DNA from: a virus
Taxonomy: Duplodnaviria; Heunggongvirae; Uroviricota; Caudoviricetes
Strand: one strand, 5' to 3'
Virus record (IMG/VR): IMGVR_UViG_2718218136_000003
Length of the DNA stretch: 35,535 bases
Shown here one piece after another: positions 5,215 to 28,489 of this stretch (its first letter is position 1; each line of letters begins with the position of its first letter). Made by a program: the position numbers and the translations under genes. The notes under the pieces were generated by a model. The model ran no database searches, had not been told where the DNA came from, and saw only the letters and a list, made by a program, of their open reading frames with translations.

Positions 5215-5486
5215 GCATTCGTATAGAAATTGGCGAACGTTATGTCGTTACCAGTGACAGCTTTCAGTTTATTCTCCATGAGAAAAAGAGAGCGGAAAGC
5301 GGTAAAAACGCCGGTCAGGAGTGGCTGGCGGTGGTTGGTTATTACCCGAAATTAAGCCAGCTCGTTTCCGGCCTGATGCATCACGATATTCTGACCGGAA
5401 GCGCAAAGTCTTTTGCTGATTTAAACGCGCAGGTTGAGCAACTCAGCAAGCGTTGTTCAGAGGCTTTTGGCTCATATGGCCATTAA
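5211..5486 (+). CDS. Early protein (P2 orf83 position), 91 aa
   Basis: 91-aa ORF; its stop overlaps the start of A. Confidence 0.6.
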   Translation: MSIRIEIGERYVVTSDSFQFILHEKKRAESGKNAGQEWLAVVGYYPKLSQLVSGLMHHDILTGSAKSFADLNAQVEQLSKRCSEAFGSYGH

Positions 5487-7761
5487 AGCCTCCGGGCGTT
5501 TTGTCCCTCCGTCAGCATTTGCTGCAGGCACCGGTAAGACGTTTACCGGTGCTTATGCATGGAGCGCGCCACGCGAGGCTGTCGGGCGCGAAAGACCCCT
5601 TACACGTGACGAGATGCGTCAGGTGCAAGGTGTTTTATCCACGATTAACCGCCTGCCTTACTTTTTGCGTTCGCTGTTTACTTCACGCTATGACTACATC
5701 CGGCGCAATAAAAGCCCGGTGCACGGGTTTTATTTCCTCACATCCACTTTTCAGCGCCGTTTATGGCCGCGCATTGAGCGTGTGAATCAGCGCCATGAAA
5801 TGAACACCGACGCGTCGTTACTGTTTCTGGCAGAGCGTGACCACTATGCGCGCCTGCCGGGAATGAATGACAAGGAGCTGAAAAAGTTTGCTGCCCGTAT
5901 CTCATCGCAGCTTTTCATGATGTATGAGGAACTCAGCGATGCCTGGGTGGATGCGCATGGCGAAAAAGAATCGCTGTTTACGGATGAGGCGCAGGCTCAC
6001 CTCTATGGTCATGTTGCTGGCGCTGCACGTGCTTTCAATATATCCCCTCTCTACTGGAAAAAATACCGTAAAGGGCAGATGACCACGAGGCAGGCATATT
6101 CTGCCATTGCCCGTCTGTTTAACGATGAGTGGTGGACTCATCAGCTTAAAGGCCAGCGTATGCGCTGGCATGAGGCGTTACTGATTGCTGTCGGGGAGGT
6201 CAATAAAGACCGTTCTCCTTATGCCAGTAAACATGCCATTCGTGATGTGCGTGCACGCCGCCAGGCAAATCTGGAATTTCTTAAATCGTGTGATCTCGAA
6301 AACAGGGAAACCGGCGAGCGCATCGACCTTATCAGTAAGGTGATGGGCAGTATTTCTAATCCTGAAATTCGCCGGATGGAGCTGATGAACACCATTGCCG
6401 GTATTGAGCGTTACGCCGCAGCAGAGGGTGATGTGGGGATGTTTATCACGCTGACCGCGCCGTCAAAGTATCACCCGACACGTCAGGTCAGAAAAGGCGA
6501 AAGTAAAACCGTCCAGCTAAATCACGGCTGGAACGATGAGGCATTTAATCCAAAGGATGCGCAGCGTTATCTCTGCCGTATCTGGAGCCTGATGCGCACG
6601 GCATTCAAGGATAATGATTTACAGGTCTACGGTTTGCGTGTCGTCGAGCCACACCACGACGGAACGCCGCACTGGCATATGATGCTTTTTTGTAATCCGC
6701 GCCAGCGTAACCAGATTATCGAAATCATGCGTCGCTATGCGCTCAAAGAGGATGGCGACGAAAGAGGAGCCGCGCGAAACCGTTTTCAGGCAAAACACCT
6801 TAATCGGGGCGGTGCTGCGGGGTATATCGCGAAATACATCTCAAAAAACATCGACGGCTATGCACTGGATGGTCAGCTCGATAACGATACCGGCAGACCT
6901 CTGAAAGATACTGCCGCGGCTGTTACTGCATGGGCGTCAACGTGGCGCATCCCGCAATTTAAAACGGTTGGTCTGCCGACAATGGGGGCTTACCGTGAAC
7001 TACGCAAATTGCCGCGCGGTGTCAGCATTGCTGATGAGTTTGACGAGCGCGTCGAGGCTGCACGCGCCGCCGCAGACAGTGGTGATTTTGCGTTGTATAT
7101 CAGCGCGCAGGGTGGGGCAAATGTCCCGCGCGATTGTCAGACTGTCAGGGTCGCCCGTAGCCCGTCGGATGACGTTAACGAGTACGAGGAAGAGGTCGAG
7201 AGAGTGGTCGGCATTTACGCGCCGCATCTCGGCGCGCGTCATATTCATATCACCAGAACGACGGACTGGCGCATTGTGCCGAAAGCTCCGGTCGTTGAGC
7301 CTTTGACTTTAAAAAGCGGCATCGCCGCGCCTCGGAGTCCTGTCAATAACTGTGGAAAGCTCACCGGTGGTGATACTTCGTTACCGGCTCCCACACCTTC
7401 TGAGCACGCCGCAGCAGTGCTAAATCTGGTTGATGACGGTGTTATCGAATGGAATGACCCGGAGGTTGTGAGGACGCTCAGGGGTGCATTAAAACACGGC
7501 CTGAAAACACCAAATCGTCAGCAAAGAAACGGAAGCCCGTTAAAACCACATGAAATAACACCGTCGGCCAGACTGACCCGGTCGGAACGATTGCAAATTA
7601 CCCGTATCCGCGTTGACCTCGCTCAGAACGGTATCAGGCCGCAACGATGGGAGCTTGAGGCGCTGGCGCGTGGCGCGACAGTAAATTATGACGGGAAAAA
7701 ATTCACGTATCCGGTCGCTGATGAGTGGTCGGGATTCTCAACAGTAATGGAGTGGACATGA
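5476..7761 (+). CDS. A: Replication initiation protein A (rolling-circle nicking protein), 761 aa
   Basis: ORF 5434-7761 trimmed to ATG at 5476, giving 761 aa as in P2 A; contains the HUH-type motif region (…PHHDGTPHWHMMLF…) and the YxxK-like region (AGYIAKYISK). Confidence 0.9.
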   Translation: MAIKASGRFVPPSAFAAGTGKTFTGAYAWSAPREAVGRERPLTRDEMRQVQGVLSTINRLPYFLRSLFTSRYDYIRRNKSPVHGFYFLTSTFQRRLWPRIERVNQRHEMNTDASLLFLAERDHYARLPGMNDKELKKFAARISSQLFMMYEELSDAWVDAHGEKESLFTDEAQAHLYGHVAGAARAFNISPLYWKKYRKGQMTTRQAYSAIARLFNDEWWTHQLKGQRMRWHEALLIAVGEVNKDRSPYASKHAIRDVRARRQANLEFLKSCDLENRETGERIDLISKVMGSISNPEIRRMELMNTIAGIERYAAAEGDVGMFITLTAPSKYHPTRQVRKGESKTVQLNHGWNDEAFNPKDAQRYLCRIWSLMRTAFKDNDLQVYGLRVVEPHHDGTPHWHMMLFCNPRQRNQIIEIMRRYALKEDGDERGAARNRFQAKHLNRGGAAGYIAKYISKNIDGYALDGQLDNDTGRPLKDTAAAVTAWASTWRIPQFKTVGLPTMGAYRELRKLPRGVSIADEFDERVEAARAAADSGDFALYISAQGGANVPRDCQTVRVARSPSDDVNEYEEEVERVVGIYAPHLGARHIHITRTTDWRIVPKAPVVEPLTLKSGIAAPRSPVNNCGKLTGGDTSLPAPTPSEHAAAVLNLVDDGVIEWNDPEVVRTLRGALKHGLKTPNRQQRNGSPLKPHEITPSARLTRSERLQITRIRVDLAQNGIRPQRWELEALARGATVNYDGKKFTYPVADEWSGFSTVMEWT

Positions 7762-8213
7762 TGGCAAAAATTCACGAGGTAAAGCTGCACGCAAAATATT
7801 TCGACCTTGTGCTGGAAGGAAAGAAACGCGCAGAGTTTCGGAAAAATGACCGTAATTATGAGCGCGGGGACACGTTGATTTTGCATGAATGGGGGCAGGG
7901 TGTGTATACGGGGCGAAAGGTTGAAGCCCGGATAACAGATGTTACTGACCTGTCAGACTGGCTGGAAGATTATGTCTTGCTAAGTATTGAGCTGCTTAAT
8001 ACAGGCGCATATGAGATTGTGAACTGGAAAGAACTTAGTGAGCGTGGTCTGTTATTCAGAATTAATCATGAAATTATGCATAAGCTCGGCCTTGCTGTTA
8101 TGTATGAACCAGAGACGGGAATGTCTGGCGGGGCAATGGTTGCCACGGATGGAGCATGGAACTATTCAGATGAACAGATGGAGCGTGCACAGCAAAACGG
8201 GTGGCTTGGATAA
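7758..8213 (+). CDS. ASCH/PUA-like (DUF3850-type) protein (P2 orf91 position), about 151 aa
   Basis: ATG at 7758 overlapping the A stop; N-terminal region (KIHEVKLHAKYFDLVLEGKKRAEFRKNDRNYERGDTLILHEW) resembles ASCH-domain proteins as I recall them. Confidence 0.65.
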   Translation: MMAKIHEVKLHAKYFDLVLEGKKRAEFRKNDRNYERGDTLILHEWGQGVYTGRKVEARITDVTDLSDWLEDYVLLSIELLNTGAYEIVNWKELSERGLLFRINHEIMHKLGLAVMYEPETGMSGGAMVATDGAWNYSDEQMERAQQNGWLG

Positions 8214-8490: not shown

Positions 8491-8648
8491 TTGACATTCA
8501 TATTTTTACTGCGTTGGTGCTGTTTTTTGACGGTTGAAAGGAGTTATCTCGGAGAGCTAAAGCTAACAACTTACAAATATTCAAAAGTAAGCTTCCTGTT
8601 GCTAACATAAGGTCGATTTTTTATGTGGATGATGCAAAAAGGATAGCT

Positions 8649-9380
8649 ATGGATACTATAATCGCTTTTCTATCACTCGCTTTTTTTGTTGCTTTTTTCA
8701 TCGGGTTAATCAAGCCATCACTGGTGCGAATGCCAAGCCGCAAACGTGCAAGTGCGGTTTATCTCGGAGGAGGTTTTGTATTGAGCATAATTGGTTCAAT
8801 ACTCTATCCAACAGAAAAAAGCCAGCCAGTTGCTAAAACTGAAACATCAACCGTTGTAGAACACCAAGTCCAAAAAACATTCGAATATGGTGAAAAAACA
8901 CTCAAGGAATATCGGAGCGAGCCAAAGAAAACTCGACACGATATTGTGAATAGTTACATTGACTTTAAGAAAGTTCCAGTCACCGCATCAGATGCATTTT
9001 ATGCCTGCATGAGTGAGTATACATTTACCAAAGATGATGAGTTGAAACTCGGTGATGTTCTTGGGTGGTGCTTTAATGATTATGAAAATGACCCGAGTTC
9101 ACTAAATAATAAAATCAATCTTGATACATTTCAGAGTAATTTTAGTGGTTGGGATGGTTCTTATCGTCCATTGGAAAAACTAATTAAAGATAATATGAAC
9201 GATGATTCATCTTATAAACATGTATCAACGGTATATCATTTAGTTTTGAATAAAGACCCGCACGCCATTGTGAAAACGACGTTTCGCGGCACTAATGCTT
9301 ATGGTGGCATGGTCAAACAGACTGTAGCAGCGCGAGTTGACGTGCGAACGGGTGAGATCGATTCAATACTCGACAATTAA
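8649..9380 (+). CDS. Uncharacterised membrane-anchored protein, 243 aa: two predicted N-terminal TM helices plus ~170-aa soluble domain; cargo in the tin/old slot
   Basis: ORF 8625-9380 trimmed to ATG at 8649 with AAGGA Shine-Dalgarno 6 nt upstream; hydrophobic stretches IIAFLSLAFFVAFFIGLI and AVYLGGGFVLSIIGSILY; AT-rich codon usage unlike the phage backbone. Confidence 0.6.
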   Translation: MDTIIAFLSLAFFVAFFIGLIKPSLVRMPSRKRASAVYLGGGFVLSIIGSILYPTEKSQPVAKTETSTVVEHQVQKTFEYGEKTLKEYRSEPKKTRHDIVNSYIDFKKVPVTASDAFYACMSEYTFTKDDELKLGDVLGWCFNDYENDPSSLNNKINLDTFQSNFSGWDGSYRPLEKLIKDNMNDDSSYKHVSTVYHLVLNKDPHAIVKTTFRGTNAYGGMVKQTVAARVDVRTGEIDSILDN

Positions 9381-9400: not shown

Positions 9401-9460
9401 TCAGTGATGAAACTTGCTTTTAGTCTTGGCGGGGTTGAGCAATGAGTCTTGCAAGGTGTT
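9401..9460 (+). repeat. Copy B of the ~60-bp imperfect direct repeat, running into the ribosome-binding site and start codon of cargo gene 2
   Basis: Manual alignment to 8431-8490; copy B ends GTTAGC immediately before ATG 9464. Confidence 0.6.
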
Positions 9461-9463
9461 AGC

Positions 9464-10120
9464 ATGCGTAGAATGGAAGCTGCTTGGACGTGGGGTATTC
9501 ATATGAATTTAAAAATTTTCGGCATAATTGTCCTTTCTGCTTTGATGTTCGTTTTAGGTTTTTTTCTCGGTGGTTTTAATTGGGAATGGGCTGATAAGAA
9601 TTATGCAGGTGAGGTGGCGTTGTGGAGTATGTTAGGAGGGTGGTTATCCGCAATTGCAACTCTGTTTGCCGTGTTGGTTTCATTATATATGGCGTATCAA
9701 GCTACTCAGAATGAGATTGAAAAAATCAGGGTTACTCATGGAGTAAGTATGAGTGTCACTCATGACAATGAGTTAAGTTGTAATCTCATTATTCAGAACT
9801 TGAGAAATATGAAAGTGAATATTACTGGTGTTTTTTTGTCTCTAGGTAAATCATCAGGTAAGTACTCTTTGGATAAAGTAATTGACAATCGTAATATAAC
9901 GCTTTCATATAAAGGTGAAACAGAAAAGGTACAATTTGTAATCCATTCTGGGTATATTTGGTGGTCAATGTATAAATTATTCGATATGGATAAGAACATA
10001 GGTTTTGAAAAGGGTAAGATCTTGATAACAACCAACCTCAATACATATGAATTTGATTTGCCAAAAGAATATTTAAGAGCTTTTGAGAAAGCTTATTCGG
10101 AGTATCAGACAAAAAAATAA
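9464..10120 (+). CDS. Uncharacterised membrane-anchored protein, 218 aa: two predicted N-terminal TM helices plus ~150-aa soluble domain; cargo in the tin/old slot
   Basis: ORF 9449-10120 trimmed to ATG at 9464 with AAGGTG 5 nt upstream; hydrophobic stretches IFGIIVLSALMFVLGFFLGGF and WSMLGGWLSAIATLFAVLVSLYMAY; AT-rich. Confidence 0.6.
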   Translation: MRRMEAAWTWGIHMNLKIFGIIVLSALMFVLGFFLGGFNWEWADKNYAGEVALWSMLGGWLSAIATLFAVLVSLYMAYQATQNEIEKIRVTHGVSMSVTHDNELSCNLIIQNLRNMKVNITGVFLSLGKSSGKYSLDKVIDNRNITLSYKGETEKVQFVIHSGYIWWSMYKLFDMDKNIGFEKGKILITTNLNTYEFDLPKEYLRAFEKAYSEYQTKK

Positions 10121-19683: not shown

Positions 19684-20469
19684 TTATGAGTGATTTTTAT
19701 TTGATGCTTTGTATTCTACAACCTTCTTATTGGCGTAAAGGAATTTTGTATATGACAGGAATATAACCAGACCTGAAATGAAATAGATGAGGGATGTTAT
19801 TAATAATGCTTTTTTTTGGCTGTTATTATCTTTAATCTCCTGACTTAACCATTCGGAGTCCTCCTCGTTTAGCTGTAAGAGCTTATTGCAGGCGATCTCA
19901 GGAAGTGTGTCTTTTATAAATACGTTTCGTAGCCTCTTGCAATCGGCAAGGCTATAAGTTTTATTGAATTCAACTGTTTTATTGTTGAAGGATAAAAGAA
20001 CTTTGTCACTATAAACATAGTACATCATATTTTTATATGGTATGCCTATGGCATCTCTTACTATAGCGGATTGTTTGTTGTGTATATAACATGCGAAGAG
20101 AATATAAATAATACTGGACAGAATTACAATTATTGTTTTAATTATGTGTGGTGGTTTTGTTATGTCACCCCAGAAGCGAGTAAGAAAAAAATACGATGTT
20201 TTTAGTTTTCCATCAATCAGCCCCTGCTGTATCATTCTCACATCTTCGATGCCTGATACATTGATTCCGTTAATTATTTTAAATAGTTGAATGTCGCGCC
20301 ATTTTTTGTCGAGCATTTTTAACTTTCTGTCTGAATACTCAAAATTGAAATGATGTGCAATAAACCTCATAAGATTACTTTTACCAAAGGTAATAAATGT
20401 TAATGCTATTAATAAAAATAGATACAAAGAGATAAACCACCACGCATTAGTCACATTATCACTGAACAT
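19684..20469 (-). CDS. Uncharacterised AT-rich integral membrane protein, 261 aa (P2 orf30 slot)
   Basis: Opposite strand to flanking tail genes; three strongly hydrophobic segments (WWFISLYLFLLIALTFITF, IIKTIIVILSSIIYILFACYI, ALLITSLIYFISGLVIFLSY); GAGGAGAG Shine-Dalgarno before ATG; Lys/Asn/Ile-rich composition. Confidence 0.6.
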   Translation of the reverse strand: MFSDNVTNAWWFISLYLFLLIALTFITFGKSNLMRFIAHHFNFEYSDRKLKMLDKKWRDIQLFKIINGINVSGIEDVRMIQQGLIDGKLKTSYFFLTRFWGDITKPPHIIKTIIVILSSIIYILFACYIHNKQSAIVRDAIGIPYKNMMYYVYSDKVLLSFNNKTVEFNKTYSLADCKRLRNVFIKDTLPEIACNKLLQLNEEDSEWLSQEIKDNNSQKKALLITSLIYFISGLVIFLSYTKFLYANKKVVEYKASNKNHS

Positions 20470-22978: not shown

Positions 22979-25297
22979 ATGAGCACAAAATTCAAAACCG
23001 TTATCACCACTGCCGGTGCAGCAAAGCTGGCAGCGGCAACCGCGCCGGGAGGGCGGAAGGTCAACATTACCACGATGGCCGTCGGGGATGGCGGTGGTAA
23101 ATTGCCTGTCCCGGATGCCGGACAGACCGGGCTTATCCATGAAGTCTGGCGACATGCGCTGAACAAAATCAGCCAGGACAAACGAAACAGTAATTATATT
23201 ATCGCAGAGCTGGTTATTCCGCCGGAGGTGGGCGGTTTCTGGATGCGTGAGCTTGGCCTGTACGATGATGCGGGAACGTTAATTGCCGTGGCGAACATGG
23301 CCGAAAGTTATAAGCCAGCCCTTGCCGAAGGCTCAGGACGTTCGCAGACCTGCCGCATGGTCATTATCGTCAGCAGTGTGGCCTCAGTGGATCTGACCAT
23401 CGACACCACAACGGTGATGGCGACGCAGGATTACGTTGATGACAAAATTGCAGAGCACGAACAGTCACGACGTCACCCGGACGCCTCGCTGACCGCAAAA
23501 GGTTTTACTCAGTTAAGCAATGCGACCAACAGCACGTCTGAAACACTGGCCGCAACGCCGAAAGCGGTTAAGGCCGCATATGACCTTGCTAACGGGAAAT
23601 ATACCGCACAGGACGCTACCACAGCGCGAAAAGGTCTTGTCCAGCTAAGTAGTGCGACCAACAGCATGTCTGAAACGCTCGCCGCAACACCAAAAGCGGT
23701 TAAGGCAGCGTATGACCTTGCTAACGGGAAATACACTGCACAGGACGCCACCACAGCGCGAAAAGGTCTTGTCCAGCTCAGTAGCGTCACCAACAGCGAT
23801 TCTGAAACGCTTGCGGCAACGCCAAAGGCGGTTAAGACAGCGTATGACCTTGCTAACGGGAAATACACTGCACAGGATGCCACCACCGCGCGAAAAGGTC
23901 TTGTCCAGCTCAGTAGCGCCACCAACAGCGATTCTGAAACGCTGGCTGCAACATCAAAAGCGGTGAAGTCTGCCTATGACAATGCTGAAAAACGTCTTCA
24001 GAAAGATCAGAACGGTGCGGATATTCCGGGAAAGGATACCTTCACGAAAAATATCGGTGCCTGTCGTGCTTATAGCGGCGCTTTGAGCACTGAAGCCGGA
24101 AACTGGACAACCGCTCAGTTTATTGAATGGCTGGATTCCCGTGGTGCATTTAATCATCCGTACTGGATGTGCAAAGGCTCCTGGTCATATGCAAATAACA
24201 AAATCATTACGGATACCGGATGTGGTGATATCCACCTGGCTGGTTGTGTCGTCGAGGTCATGGGAACTAAATCTGCAATCACTATCCGAGTGACCACGCC
24301 GACAACATCAAGCGGTGGCGGTACAACCAGCGCGCAATTCACTTACATAAATCATGGGGACGGCTACTCCCCCGGCTGGCGTCGTGACTGGAATCGTCAG
24401 GGCGACGCAATGACCGGAACGATTAATCAGGATGGCGGAAGCCAGAATGCCTATATGTCTACGGCCTTATGTTCAGGCACCAGAGGCGGCAAAAAATATC
24501 TCAGAAAGTTTCGTGGTGGAGAAGGAGACACTATCTGGCATGAAACAGTACAGGGCGGGGTAGTTCGCTGGGCGACTGGTAATACTGATGCTCAGGAAGA
24601 ATTATCACTCAGCTCCGCTTATGGTCTCCGTTCAAGAGGTGAGATTACATCAAGCAGTGCTAATGGTCTGCGCATTGCTTATGGCAATTATGGATTCTTT
24701 ATCAGGAATGATGGCAGCAGCACTTATTTTATGTTGACTAAATCAGGTGACAGATTAGGCACTTATAATAATTTAAGACCACTGATTATAAATGATGCCA
24801 CGGGTGCTGTATCAATGGGGCATGGCCTGAGTGTTACAGGTGATATTGTCTCAAGTACCAAAGTACGTGCCGGTAGCGGGAAAAAGTTCACGGTCAGCAG
24901 CAGCAATACATCCACGAAGGAAGCCGCATTCAATTTGTGGGGAAACTCAAGTCGTCCTGTGGTGGCTGAATTAGGTGATGATGCAGGCTGGCATTTTTAC
25001 AGTCAGAGAAATACAGATAACAGCATCACTTTTGCTGTTAACGGGCAGGTATCACCATCTAACTATGGAAACTTTGATTCACGCTATGTCCGGGATATCC
25101 GGCTTGGTGGTGCTGCCACATACAAACCTGCGAACAATGGTATGACATGGACACATCAGGCACCGTCCGGGTGTGTATATTCCGGCATTATTGTTCAGGA
25201 TACCGGCTCAAACTCTGCCGATAACATTGGTGGCGTATATTACAGACCGGTGCAGAAATACATTAACGGGACTTGGTATAACGTGGCGCAGGTATAA
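22979..25297 (+). CDS. H: Tail fibre protein H, 772 aa, with an internal tandem repeat array
   Basis: Long ORF after the baseplate genes; conserved N-terminus; central 44-aa repeats; Gly/Ser-rich C-terminal region. Confidence 0.88.
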   Translation: MSTKFKTVITTAGAAKLAAATAPGGRKVNITTMAVGDGGGKLPVPDAGQTGLIHEVWRHALNKISQDKRNSNYIIAELVIPPEVGGFWMRELGLYDDAGTLIAVANMAESYKPALAEGSGRSQTCRMVIIVSSVASVDLTIDTTTVMATQDYVDDKIAEHEQSRRHPDASLTAKGFTQLSNATNSTSETLAATPKAVKAAYDLANGKYTAQDATTARKGLVQLSSATNSMSETLAATPKAVKAAYDLANGKYTAQDATTARKGLVQLSSVTNSDSETLAATPKAVKTAYDLANGKYTAQDATTARKGLVQLSSATNSDSETLAATSKAVKSAYDNAEKRLQKDQNGADIPGKDTFTKNIGACRAYSGALSTEAGNWTTAQFIEWLDSRGAFNHPYWMCKGSWSYANNKIITDTGCGDIHLAGCVVEVMGTKSAITIRVTTPTTSSGGGTTSAQFTYINHGDGYSPGWRRDWNRQGDAMTGTINQDGGSQNAYMSTALCSGTRGGKKYLRKFRGGEGDTIWHETVQGGVVRWATGNTDAQEELSLSSAYGLRSRGEITSSSANGLRIAYGNYGFFIRNDGSSTYFMLTKSGDRLGTYNNLRPLIINDATGAVSMGHGLSVTGDIVSSTKVRAGSGKKFTVSSSNTSTKEAAFNLWGNSSRPVVAELGDDAGWHFYSQRNTDNSITFAVNGQVSPSNYGNFDSRYVRDIRLGGAATYKPANNGMTWTHQAPSGCVYSGIIVQDTGSNSADNIGGVYYRPVQKYINGTWYNVAQV
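23498..23980 (+). repeat. About 3.7 tandem copies of a 132-bp (44-codon) in-frame repeat inside H (KGLVQLSSATNSxSETLAATPKAVKAAYDLANGKYTAQDATTAR)
   Basis: Unit starts at 23498, 23630, 23762 and 23894; near-identical at nucleotide level; also produces mirror ORFs on the opposite strand. Confidence 0.9.
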
Positions 25298-25300
25298 TTT

Positions 25301-25828
25301 ATGCAGCATTTGATAAATATAACGGCAGGTAATCCAAAAACGGTTGAACAATATCAATTGACAAAAGACTTTGATGTTGTCTGGTTTTTTTCAGAAGATG
25401 GTAAGAACTGGTACGAAGAACAAAAGTATTTTGCTGATGACACGCTAAAAATAGCGTACGACAAAGATAATATCATCCGCTATGTGGAAAAGGATGTGAC
25501 AGCTATCAGACCGGATGGATTAAGTGTGGTTGAAGTGGCGGATATTACTGCTAACCGACGGGCGGACATTTCAGGGGACTGGATGTTTAAGGGCGGCAAA
25601 GTGATTAAACGCATTTATACGGCAGAGGAATTGCAGCAGCAGGCAGAAAACCGGAAAGCCAGACTTCTTGCAGATGCTGAATCCGTGATTTTGCCGCTGG
25701 AGCGCGCTGTCAGGCTGAATATGGCTACAGAGGAGGAGCGCACACGACTGGAAGCATGGGAACGCTACAGCGTTCTGGTCAGTCGTGTGGATCCTGCAAA
25801 TCCTGAATGGCCGGAAATGCCGCAATAA
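25301..25828 (+). CDS. G: Tail fibre assembly chaperone G, 175 aa
   Basis: 175-aa ORF immediately after H, P2 G length. Confidence 0.85.
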
Positions 25829-25862
25829 GTTGTATGAGCTCTGGTGTGAGCTTACATATCTA

Positions 25863-25905
25863 TGGCACAGAGTAAAGACTAATCTGACAGTCCGCTCTGT
25901 GCCAA
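25863..25905. terminator. 10-bp inverted repeat (GGCACAGAGT / ACTCTGTGCC-like) with long loop after G; candidate stem-loop or terminator
   Basis: GGCACAGAG at 25864-25872 pairs with CTCTGTGCC at 25896-25904; no strong U-tract. Confidence 0.35.
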
Positions 25906-26032
25906 AAACGGACATGTCAAAGCGCAGAGTGAATGGCTAAGTCTAGCTCATTAGAAATGTTCGCTTCATGAAAATGGCTGCAGCAAGGATCTATCTCACT
26001 GCGGCCTCTTTACAATAACGAAATTTTGCGAG

Positions 26033-26788
26033 CTATTCCTTGGCCTCTTTATTTTTCTCGCCATCGCCAATGTAAAGAAGATAATCGTTTAAGGATATCC
26101 TTCCGGAGGGGCCGGTCCATGTTATCAATCCGTTCTCACGAAGATTAAATAATGCTTCCATGAACTCATTATCGTTAAAAGAATGATCCTCTGAGAACAG
26201 AATGTTCATTTTTCTCAATAGTTCTTCCACTTTAATCTTTTCATATCGCCTTATCAGACTTAGTGCTTTACGACGCATTAAGATTGTAGGTACTGCTTGT
26301 GAACGAATGGTTTTTTGTATTCCACTATCAAGAACTTTCTTGATCTTGCTCTCTAACTCTTTGATTTTAGTTTCATTATCTCCATTGGACTTAAGCTTTT
26401 CATCAACGATGCAAATAATTTCCTGACTAATGCTGTTCTTGAGGTTGTTTATTTTTTCTTCATTGTTGAGAATCTCATCAGAGCTTCCTGCATGGGGTTT
26501 TTTCCATATGTGCTGACGCATATCCGTTACCGTATCTCTCATCATAGAGAATGTATCTGAATATAACTTGTCAAATATTTTTTCCAGTCGTTCGACACTT
26601 GCCTGGATGTCTTTTGCTGCTTTAGTTGTCTCTTTAGAAGCCTCATTCGACATTTTATAAAAAACAAAAGAAAGCCAAATAGCCCCAATGGCGAGTACTA
26701 ATGAGGCTATTGTGGCAATAAAACCTATTATTGTTATTGCTGTATCTAATGTGCCTGCTGCATCTGTGACTACTGTTTCTGCTGCCAT
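26033..26788 (-). CDS. Uncharacterised AT-rich membrane-anchored coiled-coil protein, 251 aa (P2 Z/fun slot)
   Basis: Opposite strand to the tail genes; N-terminal hydrophobic helix (ITIIGFIATIASLVLAIGAIWLSFVFY) followed by a Lys/Glu-rich region; GAGGAT Shine-Dalgarno before ATG at 26788. Confidence 0.6.
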   Translation of the reverse strand: MAAETVVTDAAGTLDTAITIIGFIATIASLVLAIGAIWLSFVFYKMSNEASKETTKAAKDIQASVERLEKIFDKLYSDTFSMMRDTVTDMRQHIWKKPHAGSSDEILNNEEKINNLKNSISQEIICIVDEKLKSNGDNETKIKELESKIKKVLDSGIQKTIRSQAVPTILMRRKALSLIRRYEKIKVEELLRKMNILFSEDHSFNDNEFMEALFNLRENGLITWTGPSGRISLNDYLLYIGDGEKNKEAKE

Positions 26789-27179
26789 ATATCCTCAATA
26801 TTTAACCATACAGGGTAGCGTGTTTTAACCGCGGGGAAGTCGGGGTGGTGACACCCTAGCCTTACCCCGATTCCAGAGTATTTATTTATCATACCATTGA
26901 AACTATTTAATTTTATCGAAAATTTTGTCAGAGCGTGACTGAAAAGTCTTCAGCACGTCAAGCATATCGTCGCCGTTCAATTAACACTGAGCCTTTTCTT
27001 AGAGGGGTGGGCTGCGCAGTTGCGAGGTTATGCCCCAGTTCCTAGTTCCTCACTACATTCTAATTAAGCCGGCCAACTAAATGTCCGCTTTTCGCTCAAA
27101 GCAGACTGTCAGATTTGATAGCGTTTGGGCTATGTAAATTGTCAGTTGGAAAATGAGTGAGTGCAAATCATGGCAGGCT

Positions 27180-27298
27180 GGCGGATTACCCGCCTTTTCT
27201 TTGTCTGTTGTTTCATCCCCTGACCAGCCAGGTCAAATAGCGTCTCATGCTCTGCACAACAGAAAATAGTTGCACCCATTAACCACGGAGTTAAACGG
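27180..27298 (+). promoter_or_regulatory. Late promoter region for the FI-FII-E-T-U-D operon; contains TGTTGT motif at 27208-27213
   Basis: Position upstream of FI; motif shared with regions upstream of O and V. Confidence 0.45.
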
Positions 27299-28489
27299 AT
27301 GAGTGACTATCATCACGGCGTGCAGGTGCTGGAGATTAACGACGGCACCCGCGTCATTTCCACCGTATCCACGGCCATTGTCGGCATGGTCTGCACGGCC
27401 AGCGATGCGGATGCGGAAACCTTCCCCCTCAATAAACCGGTGCTGATTACTAATGTGCAGAGCGCAATTGCAAAGGCCGGTAAAAAAGGCACGCTGGCGG
27501 CGTCGTTACAGGCCATCGCTGACCAGTCAAAACCGGTCACCGTTGTTGTGCGCGTGGAAGACGGCACCGGCGACGACGAGGAAACGAAACTTGCGCAGAC
27601 CGTTTCCAATATCATCGGCACCACCGACGAAAACGGTCAGTACACCGGACTGAAAGCCCTGCTGGCGGCGGAGTCGGTAACCGGTGTTAAACCGCGCATT
27701 CTCGGTGTGCCGGGACTGGACACCAAAGAGGTGGCTGTTGCACTGGCATCAGTCTGTCAGAAGCTGCGCGCTTTCGGGTATATCAGCGCATGGGGCTGTA
27801 AGACCATTTCCGAGGTGAAAGCCTACCGCCAGAATTTCAGCCAGCGTGAGCTGATGGTCATCTGGCCGGATTTCCTCGCATGGGATACGGTCACCAGTAC
27901 CACCGCCACCGCGTATGCCACCGCCCGTGCGCTGGGGCTGCGTGCCAGAATCGACCAGGAGCAGGGCTGGCATAAAACGCTGTCCAATGTCGGGGTGAAC
28001 GGTGTTACCGGCATCAGCGCATCTGTATTCTGGGATTTGCAGGAGTCCGGCACCGATGCTGACCTGCTTAACGAGTCAGGCGTTACTACGCTGATTCGCC
28101 GCGACGGTTTCCGCTTCTGGGGTAACCGTACCTGCTCTGATGACCCGCTGTTCCTCTTTGAAAACTACACCCGCACCGCGCAGGTGCTGGCCGACACGAT
28201 GGCTGAGGCGCACATGTGGGCGGTGGACAAGCCCATCACCGCAACGCTGATTCGCGACATCGTTGACGGCATCAATGCCAAATTCCGTGAGCTGAAAACA
28301 AACGGCTATATCGTGGATGCGACCTGCTGGTTCAGCGAAGAATCCAACGATGCGGAAACCCTCAAGGCCGGAAAACTGTATATCGACTACGACTATACCC
28401 CGGTGCCTCCTCTTGAAAACCTGACCCTGCGCCAGCGTATTACTGATAAATACCTGGCAAATCTGGTCACCTCGGTTAACAGCAATTAA
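27299..28489 (+). CDS. FI: Tail sheath protein FI, 396 aa
   Basis: 396-aa ORF, P2 FI length and position. Confidence 0.9.
   Translation: MSDYHHGVQVLEINDGTRVISTVSTAIVGMVCTASDADAETFPLNKPVLITNVQSAIAKAGKKGTLAASLQAIADQSKPVTVVVRVEDGTGDDEETKLAQTVSNIIGTTDENGQYTGLKALLAAESVTGVKPRILGVPGLDTKEVAVALASVCQKLRAFGYISAWGCKTISEVKAYRQNFSQRELMVIWPDFLAWDTVTSTTATAYATARALGLRARIDQEQGWHKTLSNVGVNGVTGISASVFWDLQESGTDADLLNESGVTTLIRRDGFRFWGNRTCSDDPLFLFENYTRTAQVLADTMAEAHMWAVDKPITATLIRDIVDGINAKFRELKTNGYIVDATCWFSEESNDAETLKAGKLYIDYDYTPVPPLENLTLRQRITDKYLANLVTSVNSN

Follow-up and report, generated by a model that had tools for sequence, protein, structure and literature searches.

The P2-like prophage represented by IMG/VR virus record IMGVR_UViG_2718218136_000003 carries, between gene G (tail fibre assembly) and gene FI (sheath), a self-contained cassette with a single gene for a membrane protein, and this gene or its homologues are also found in unrelated tailed prophages, in filamentous prophages and on plasmids. 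Here, we focus on this gene (26033–26788, minus strand, 251 amino acids) and on its family. The window is the whole record of 35,535 nucleotides, which matches a prophage of Escherichia coli O177:H21 (NZ_CP016546.1) with 100% identity. That the gene is dispensable accessory cargo, which functions alone and benefits temperate elements that differ greatly in life style, is well supported, as is a role in lysogenic conversion; an anti-phage role is plausible. The reading that we favour, tentatively and as somewhat short of an even prospect when taken as a whole, is that the protein is a membrane-acting abortive-infection or exclusion factor gated by a winged helix domain.

The slot between genes G and FI

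Gene G ends at 25828 and FI starts at 27299. Homology to P2 (NC_001895) stops at 25913 (P2 15358) and restarts at 27084 (P2 17433), and the P2 segment replaced is exactly that holding fun(Z), which likewise lies on the minus strand. An earlier note on this DNA, made from its letters and open reading frames (ORFs), had placed the gene in the Z/fun slot, and the alignment bears this out. The minus-strand ORF of 251 codons that it described is confirmed to the base, with an ATG start and a TAG stop, and is the single ORF of substance in the interval. The cargo is also AT-rich, as had been noted, with a guanine plus cytosine (GC) content of 0.35–0.39 over 26050–26950 compared with 0.50–0.60 in G/H and FI. 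The lengths given for the noncoding flanks are correct (204 bp, 25829–26032; 510 bp, 26789–27298), but not all of this DNA belongs to the slot: 25829–25913 and 27084–27298 are conserved P2 backbone, the latter making up approximately 215 bp at the right end of the 510-bp flank.

The slot is variable, in keeping with its earlier description as a site of changing cargo. The query is matched in 1011 of 5426 complete E. coli genomes, only 10 of which cover at least 80% of it, the rest sharing the flanks alone; this cargo occupies the P2 slot in only seven of the approximately 1000 E. coli genomes that have the slot. Other occupants of the interval between G and FI include an FlxA-like gene with a hypothetical gene, a DUF4145 gene, a NUDIX and HAD pair, and a DUF6615 gene, while the sequenced phages P22H4 and 9W hold the same cargo with 97.4% DNA identity. 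Present or absent among collinear phages and deviant in base composition, the cargo has the character of a moron. The same locus has been reported as a second defence-enriched hotspot of P2-like phages, home to three validated systems in addition to fun (Vassallo et al. 2022, PMC9519451), and a hotspot within the tail genes is also listed in a 2026 survey (PMC13586616).

Gene and family

The ORF can be taken as a real gene under purifying selection, rather than a chance ORF, because it has a full-length match to a known protein cluster, numerous homologues and a low ratio of non-synonymous to synonymous substitution (dN/dS). The cluster is phrog_36054, to whose hidden Markov model (HMM) the protein aligns over residues 1–251 of 251 (E 1.2e-174); the protein is thus a member, and the function of the cluster is unassigned. 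Homologues fall into 351 clusters at 90% in a large protein collection and into 482 clusters at 50% identity in an exhaustive search, and nearly all those listed are 200–260 amino acids long. Overall dN/dS (Nei–Gojobori) is 0.14–0.19 against the homologues of Citrobacter koseri, Serratia oryzae and a Hafnia paralvei-type viral contig.

The distribution of the family is very patchy. A pattern scan of 185,579 species representatives found 43 loci, which lie in Proteobacteria, Bacteroidota, Planctomycetota, Actinobacteria, Acidobacteriota and one Methanoregula metagenome-assembled genome (MAG); identity of the N-terminal region across phyla is 59–79%. The archaeal (Methanoregula) homologue is 59% identical over residues 16–124, and its presence may stem from a binning artefact or from transfer in the recent past. 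In Thiorhodospira the homologue is divided between two ORFs, and the copy of a Campylobacterales MAG is truncated at a contig end.

Protein architecture

The protein can be divided into an N-terminal tail, a transmembrane (TM) helix, a juxtamembrane helix, a stalk and a winged helix domain. Residues 17–44 are the sole TM candidate (maximum Kyte–Doolittle 19-residue mean 2.4), as the earlier note had proposed; its account of a Lys/Glu-rich coiled coil behind the membrane helix was right as far as it went and missed the juxtamembrane helix and the C-terminal winged helix. Across the family, lysine and arginine average 0.12 in the 15 residues before the TM helix and 2.9 in the 15 after it, and the N-terminal tail has a median length of 11 residues and holds no periplasmic sensing domain. 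Hydropathy and the positive-inside rule, applied across the family, therefore predict a bitopic inner-membrane protein with its N-terminus out and its C-terminus in, nearly all of which is cytoplasmic. AlphaFold2 places long helices at residues 3–95, 105–132 and 139–164, and with a deeper alignment the TM and juxtamembrane parts are modelled as one unbroken helix (3–95) with a predicted local distance difference test score (pLDDT) of 75–93.

Conservation is highest next to the membrane. The juxtamembrane helix (45–98) is near-invariant, with the motif RLEKxFDKLYSDTFSMMxDTVxDMRxHIW, and spans 54 residues in 115 of 115 sequences; alignments of 49 and 115 sequences, reaching down to 33% overall identity, contain 24–26 invariant columns. 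Conservation in the TM–juxtamembrane helix has a periodicity of 100 degrees and is strongest along two heptad stripes, T26-A33-S40-S47-T54-I61-L68-L75-M82-D89 and L30-I37-Y44-S51-A58-V65-F72-T79-T86-H93, both of which run unbroken from the membrane interior into the cytoplasm. The juxtamembrane heptad core is near-invariant from E. coli to Bacteroidota and Actinobacteria, and we infer that the stripes may form the core of a parallel homo-oligomer. Profile searches with the conserved N-terminal module found nothing below E 0.2 among solved structures and, where fusions to other domains were sought, gave short fragments only.

Constraint is relaxed with distance from the membrane: dN/dS is 0.02 over residues 17–98, 0.10–0.19 in the stalk and 0.25–0.31 in the winged helix (~165–240), the least constrained part of the protein. 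The stalk (99–164) is predicted to be helical; in the 115 sequences it is acidic, with a median net charge of −4, differs in sequence from member to member and is 55–73 residues long. The top Foldseek matches of the C-terminal domain are all winged helices (TFIIIC eWH, cullin WHB, PerR, PadR/LmrR, MCM4 and Z-alpha; probability ~1), its topology, H1-S1-H2-H3-S2-W-S3, is superposable on solved winged helix domains, and profile searches of PDB sequences found the winged helices of RPA32 and MarR. The Pfam match to MCM4_WHD is sub-threshold. Residues R172, R180 and R217 are conserved, and in two family members an OST-HTH/LOTUS domain is appended C-terminally. Further sub-threshold matches, to DHC_N1, FUT8_N_cat, Fib_alpha and apolipoprotein, were set aside as coiled-coil noise, and other winged helix hits were scattered and weak.

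Carriers of the gene

The same cassette is found in a lambdoid prophage of three pig E. coli genomes, between a DUF977 gene of the replication region and hokD, with 98.6% identity over 25863–27107 (blastn) or 99.3% over 25890–27107 (megablast). This site, too, is variable: at positions 5300–7900 of the E. coli 1506D011 prophage stretch it holds the cassette, and elsewhere a gene for a ‘DNA-binding protein’, a ‘chaperonin’ or an FRG-domain protein. Beyond E. coli, homologues in C. koseri (89% identity) border a lambdoid-type prophage, next to DinI/UmuDC, and also a myovirus prophage, where the gene follows that for tail-fibre assembly. In a Hafnia-type P2-like contig the homologue (84%) lies in the S–V (orf30) slot in the same orientation as the late genes, and in Serratia marcescens (72%) it is on the opposite strand, with the small terminase gene on one side and the large one on the other. 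The Klebsiella homologue (58%) is borne by IncF conjugative plasmids and adjoins an ISNCY transposase. The Cronobacter homologue (69%) is chromosomal, beside type VI secretion system (T6SS) and DsbC genes, and has no phage genes nearby.

Five inovirus prophages with three types of replication protein also carry a homologue; these copies come from E. coli (65%), Citrobacter (53%), Pectobacterium (56%), Providencia (48%) and Alcaligenes (34–40%). In E. coli and Citrobacter the gene follows an HTH_3 repressor gene, in one case within a tandemly repeated phage unit, and a Citrobacter metagenome scaffold has two tandem copies of an inovirus prophage, at whose joint lie the homologue, an HTH_3 repressor gene and some small ORFs. 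Neighbours in accessory regions include HipBA, an HigBA-like pair and a ParS-type antitoxin, and an ASCH-like gene adjoins the Providencia homologue. The 43 loci of the pattern scan show no inovirus genes (Zot, secretin, Rep_trans and G2P, sought with phmmer and, where more than one sequence was available, HMMs).

An all-against-all BLASTP comparison of the 563 ORFs neighbouring these 43 loci found no conserved partner gene, and it is for this reason that the gene is held to act alone. Carriage by many unrelated temperate phages strengthens its candidacy as an abortive-infection or exclusion gene, without demonstrating it.

Organization of the cassette

The cassette appears to have the classical layout of a moron: a self-contained unit of approximately 1.2 kb with a candidate promoter, a ribosome-binding site, one gene and a terminator-like hairpin. 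The earlier picture of the cargo as one opposite-strand, AT-rich membrane-protein gene stands, to which candidate expression signals of its own can be added. The features of the interval are as follows.

25881–25915, plus strand: left arm (35 bp) of an inverted repeat, at the left slot junction, in P2 backbone just past gene G
25971–26006, minus strand: terminator-like hairpin, GGCCGCAG...CUGCAGCC then AUUUU, 27 nt 3′ of the stop codon
26033–26788, minus strand: coding sequence of 251 amino acids (N-terminal tail 1–16, TM helix 17–44, juxtamembrane helix 45–98, stalk 99–164, winged helix ~165–240)
26792–26796, minus strand: Shine–Dalgarno sequence GAGGA, 3 nt 5′ of the ATG, invariant in all aligned homologous cassettes
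26888–26896, minus strand: candidate extended −10 promoter TGgTATGAT, read from the sequence
26789–27080, minus strand: cassette-specific upstream region, which moves with the gene into other contexts (alignment)
27081–27115, minus strand: right arm (35 bp) of the inverted repeat, at the right slot junction; terminator-like hairpin on the minus strand
27116–27298, plus strand: P2 backbone, not cargo, in which a terminator-like hairpin precedes the PF late promoter

The RNA of 25940–26035 (minus strand) folds with −30.9 kcal/mol (z = −3.63), and none of 200 shuffled sequences was equally stable; a terminator consensus scan missed the hairpin at 25971–26006 because its loop exceeds 8 nt. Transcription is predicted to start at approximately 26881, giving a 5′ untranslated region of approximately 90 nt. 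The extended −10 motif, TCAATGGTATGAT, is kept in the aligned cassettes of E. coli, Citrobacter, Serratia oryzae and IMG/VR, and 320 bp 5′ of the ATG travel with the gene in the Citrobacter, Serratia oryzae and IMG/VR contigs. A structured 5′ leader was considered and rejected, the GC-rich hairpin at approximately 26830–26875 being no more stable than shuffled sequences (z = −0.25), and Rfam gave no match at E ≤ 1 over 25700–27400.

The arms of the inverted repeat are identical at 30 of 35 bases, each has its own GTCCG...CGGAC hairpin, and a pattern search found exactly two copies in the window, compared with 0 expected. Homology to other P2-like phages ends at 25904–25915. The repeat is P2 backbone and occurs in P2-like phages with other cargo, and the lambdoid copy of the cassette (E. 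coli 1506D011) includes most of both arms; it may mark recombination boundaries for cargo swapping. Transposon-like mobility by means of the repeat was rejected, since the repeat belongs to the backbone regardless of cargo and its arms are themselves hairpins.

Alignment to annotated P2 features places the activator site of PF at approximately 27206–27231 and its start at approximately 27273. Just upstream, a plus-strand hairpin (27180–27203) with a GC stem and a T-run, GGCGGATTACCCGCC TTTTCTTT, is kept in P2, P24C9 and E. coli H10 and looks like a terminator shielding the F operon from slot transcription. An ORF of 45 amino acids (27142–27279, minus strand), listed as a hypothetical protein in phage 9W, falls wholly within the conserved PF promoter region and is probably not a gene.

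Proposed function and alternatives

Three considerations lead us to favour a membrane-acting abortive or exclusion factor: the pattern of a gene that benefits the lysogen, its place in a proven defence hotspot of P2 and the gradient of constraint along the protein. The gene is probably expressed from the prophage in the lysogen, because it is transcribed antiparallel to the late tail operons, and its product, as a lysogenic-conversion protein, would act at the inner membrane to shield the host of the prophage from other phages. The variable winged helix would serve as the sensor of a phage-derived protein or nucleic acid, and the invariant TM–juxtamembrane module, as a parallel homo-oligomeric bundle, would be the effector. 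Once triggered, the bundle would open or perturb the membrane and infection would be aborted; the pore step carries less confidence than the statement as a whole. A conserved effector with a diversifying sensor would be expected to show the pattern seen here, in which the membrane module is invariant, the stalk varies and the winged helix evolves fast, and inoviruses are known carriers of exclusion genes (PMC6813254). A bolder version, that the protein is the founding member of an undescribed and widely distributed single-protein immunity family in which a gated TM–juxtamembrane bundle is combined with phage specificity provided by the winged helix, and whose cassette is traded widely among myovirus-, siphovirus- and filamentous-type prophages and plasmids, we regard as unlikely.

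Several observations weigh against the favoured reading. No functional data are reported for any family member, and no published test of the protein was found in the literature searched by accession and PHROG identifiers. Proteins with a single TM helix form pores poorly, oligomerization is suggested by the periodicity of conservation only, and AlphaFold confidence for the juxtamembrane helix and the arrangement of domains is low to moderate (pLDDT 53–80; predicted template modelling score 0.28–0.36). With a median net charge of +1 in 115 sequences, the winged helix is only weakly basic. Pfam and NCBIfam returned no significant family match for the protein and 49 family members, and PADLOC-DB v2.0.0 no system HMM match (best PDC-M49B, E 0.4). 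At the 43 loci, housekeeping genes predominate among the two nearest neighbours on each side, where three integrases and two transposases were also counted; defence-model matches are infrequent, no PADLOC model being found in more than two of 150 neighbours, and enrichment in defence islands is not evident outside enteric prophages.

Many homologues in environmental bacteria lie among housekeeping genes, and no sign of a mobile element or of defence is seen within two genes of them. This would fit a non-defence role in lysogenic conversion, as a membrane-tethered regulator or scaffold altering host physiology (envelope stress, biofilm, or the handling of DNA or plasmids at the membrane) or as a stabilizer of the carrier element. 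The chromosomal Cronobacter copy beside T6SS and DsbC genes fits such a role, and winged helices often mediate protein–protein contacts, as do those of cullin WHB and RPA32 among the top matches. However, strong N-terminal identity across phyla in spite of a patchy distribution suggests that an accessory trait has spread horizontally, the gene in enteric bacteria is found almost solely at prophage cargo positions, and the short N-terminal tail leaves no room for periplasmic sensing; we consider this account somewhat unlikely. It is very improbable indeed that the carrier phage is the beneficiary, for example through the timing of lysis, the assembly of virions at the membrane or the control of induction. 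Phage lysis and inovirus assembly commonly involve membrane proteins, and the inovirus copies lie beside a repressor gene inside the phage unit, but the gene is missing from more than 99% of P2-like prophages with the same flanks, occupies non-equivalent positions in at least five phage architectures and is here oriented against the late operons. The earlier note had named homology to a structural tail or assembly protein as the outcome that would speak against its proposal; no homology to tail, assembly or lysis families was found in Pfam, NCBIfam or PHROG, and structure searches likewise found no tail or assembly relative.

A further alternative is superinfection exclusion at genome entry. 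In that case the protein would be constitutively present in the inner membrane, placed like SNIPE without its nuclease, and the stalk and winged helix would bind incoming DNA or ejection or tape-measure proteins, with no killing. Its layout is SNIPE-like (an N-out TM anchor, an elongated cytoplasmic middle and a C-terminal fold of a nucleic-acid-binding class; PMC13190303), the OST-HTH/LOTUS domains of two members hint at nucleic acid, and carriage by many types of temperate phage is shared with classical exclusion genes. Set against this are the lack of a nuclease or DUF4041 domain, the weakly basic winged helix and a conservation gradient reversed from that of SNIPE, whose N-terminal region is a variable adaptor (PMC13190303); moreover, a TM–juxtamembrane module invariant across phyla is hard to square with binding to host-specific entry proteins. 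An entry block is, on balance, unlikely.

Comparison with known systems

SNIPE, also named PD-lambda-1, is a membrane-bound GIY-YIG nuclease (Saxton et al. 2026, PMC13190303). Like the protein described here, it is encoded by a single gene on prophages or other mobile genetic elements and has an N-terminal single-pass TM helix (N-out, as predicted here), an elongated cytoplasmic middle and a nucleic-acid-associated C-terminal fold. The differences lie in the domains and in their conservation. DUF4041 is absent from the Pfam matches of our protein at E ≤ 1 and from those of 49 members scanned at E ≤ 0.01; no nuclease is present, GIY-YIG (T5orf172) being found by neither Pfam nor PADLOC, and the C-terminus is a bare winged helix. 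Furthermore, conservation here peaks in the TM–juxtamembrane region and is lowest at the C-terminus, whereas in SNIPE the opposite is true.

The cargo of P2 hotspot 2 (three PD systems, PMC9519451) shares with our gene its address and, as predicted for our gene, a layout as a single operon with a native promoter, but no PADLOC model matches the protein, including those for PD-T4, PD-T7 and PD-lambda. P2 Fun(Z), which excludes T5 (NC_001895, P2p22), is likewise non-essential lysogenic-conversion cargo on the minus strand of the slot between G and FI; it differs in length (528 versus 251 amino acids) and shows no sequence similarity (NP_046777, best BLASTP E 8.7). Membrane-effector abortive-infection proteins and classical prophage exclusion proteins, such as RexB, P22 SieA and HK97 gp15, are small prophage-encoded inner-membrane proteins that are expressed in the lysogen and act on superinfecting phage. 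No sequence or fold relationship to these was found, and none among them is known to join one TM helix, an invariant coiled-coil-like helix and a winged helix.

Other features of the prophage

The A–Q (tin/old) hotspot of this prophage holds two plus-strand ORFs, 8625–9380 (251 amino acids) and 9449–10120 (223 amino acids), which have no Pfam or PADLOC match and constitute further uncharacterized hotspot cargo. The statement in the earlier note that the protein studied here is unrelated to the tin/old-slot proteins holds for the ORF at 8625–9380 (BLASTP E 0.73), the one of the two that was compared. The S–V (orf30) slot holds a minus-strand ORF, 19684–20469 (261 amino acids), also with no Pfam or PADLOC match and with no similarity to our protein (BLASTP E 3.2); in the Hafnia-type P2-like contig this slot is the site of the homologue. 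A plus-strand ORF at 7725–8213 encodes a DUF3850/ASCH and DUF7415 protein and follows the large ORF at 5434–7761, which we take to be P2 gene A. Gene H (22979–25297; tail fibre) has, in translation, four tandem units of approximately 44 amino acids (…TAQDATTARKGLVQLSSATNS.SETLAATPKAVKAAYDLANGKY…) at 23509–23966.

Significance

Roughly one in five complete E. coli genomes (1011/5426) contains a P2-like prophage, and the unannotated cargo of P2 and P4 hotspots has often proved antiviral in published tests (PMC9519451, PMC13586616). A gene of unknown function in a P2 hotspot is thus expected rather than surprising. What sets this one apart is a sizeable undescribed family whose architecture is unlike that of known defence proteins, whose membrane-proximal region is unusually well conserved across phyla, and whose carriage is common to tailed prophages, filamentous prophages and plasmids. 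The combination of tailed and filamentous carriage with a near-invariant membrane module suggests a general mechanism rather than a phage-specific trick. The cassette is also a clean test case, comprising one gene in 1.2 kb with predicted native expression signals, no known family and clear domain boundaries. Should it show no activity against phages, it would argue by example against the habit of interpreting all hotspot genes as defence genes; if active, it would represent a new membrane-level effector architecture and a compact model of sensor and effector in one protein.

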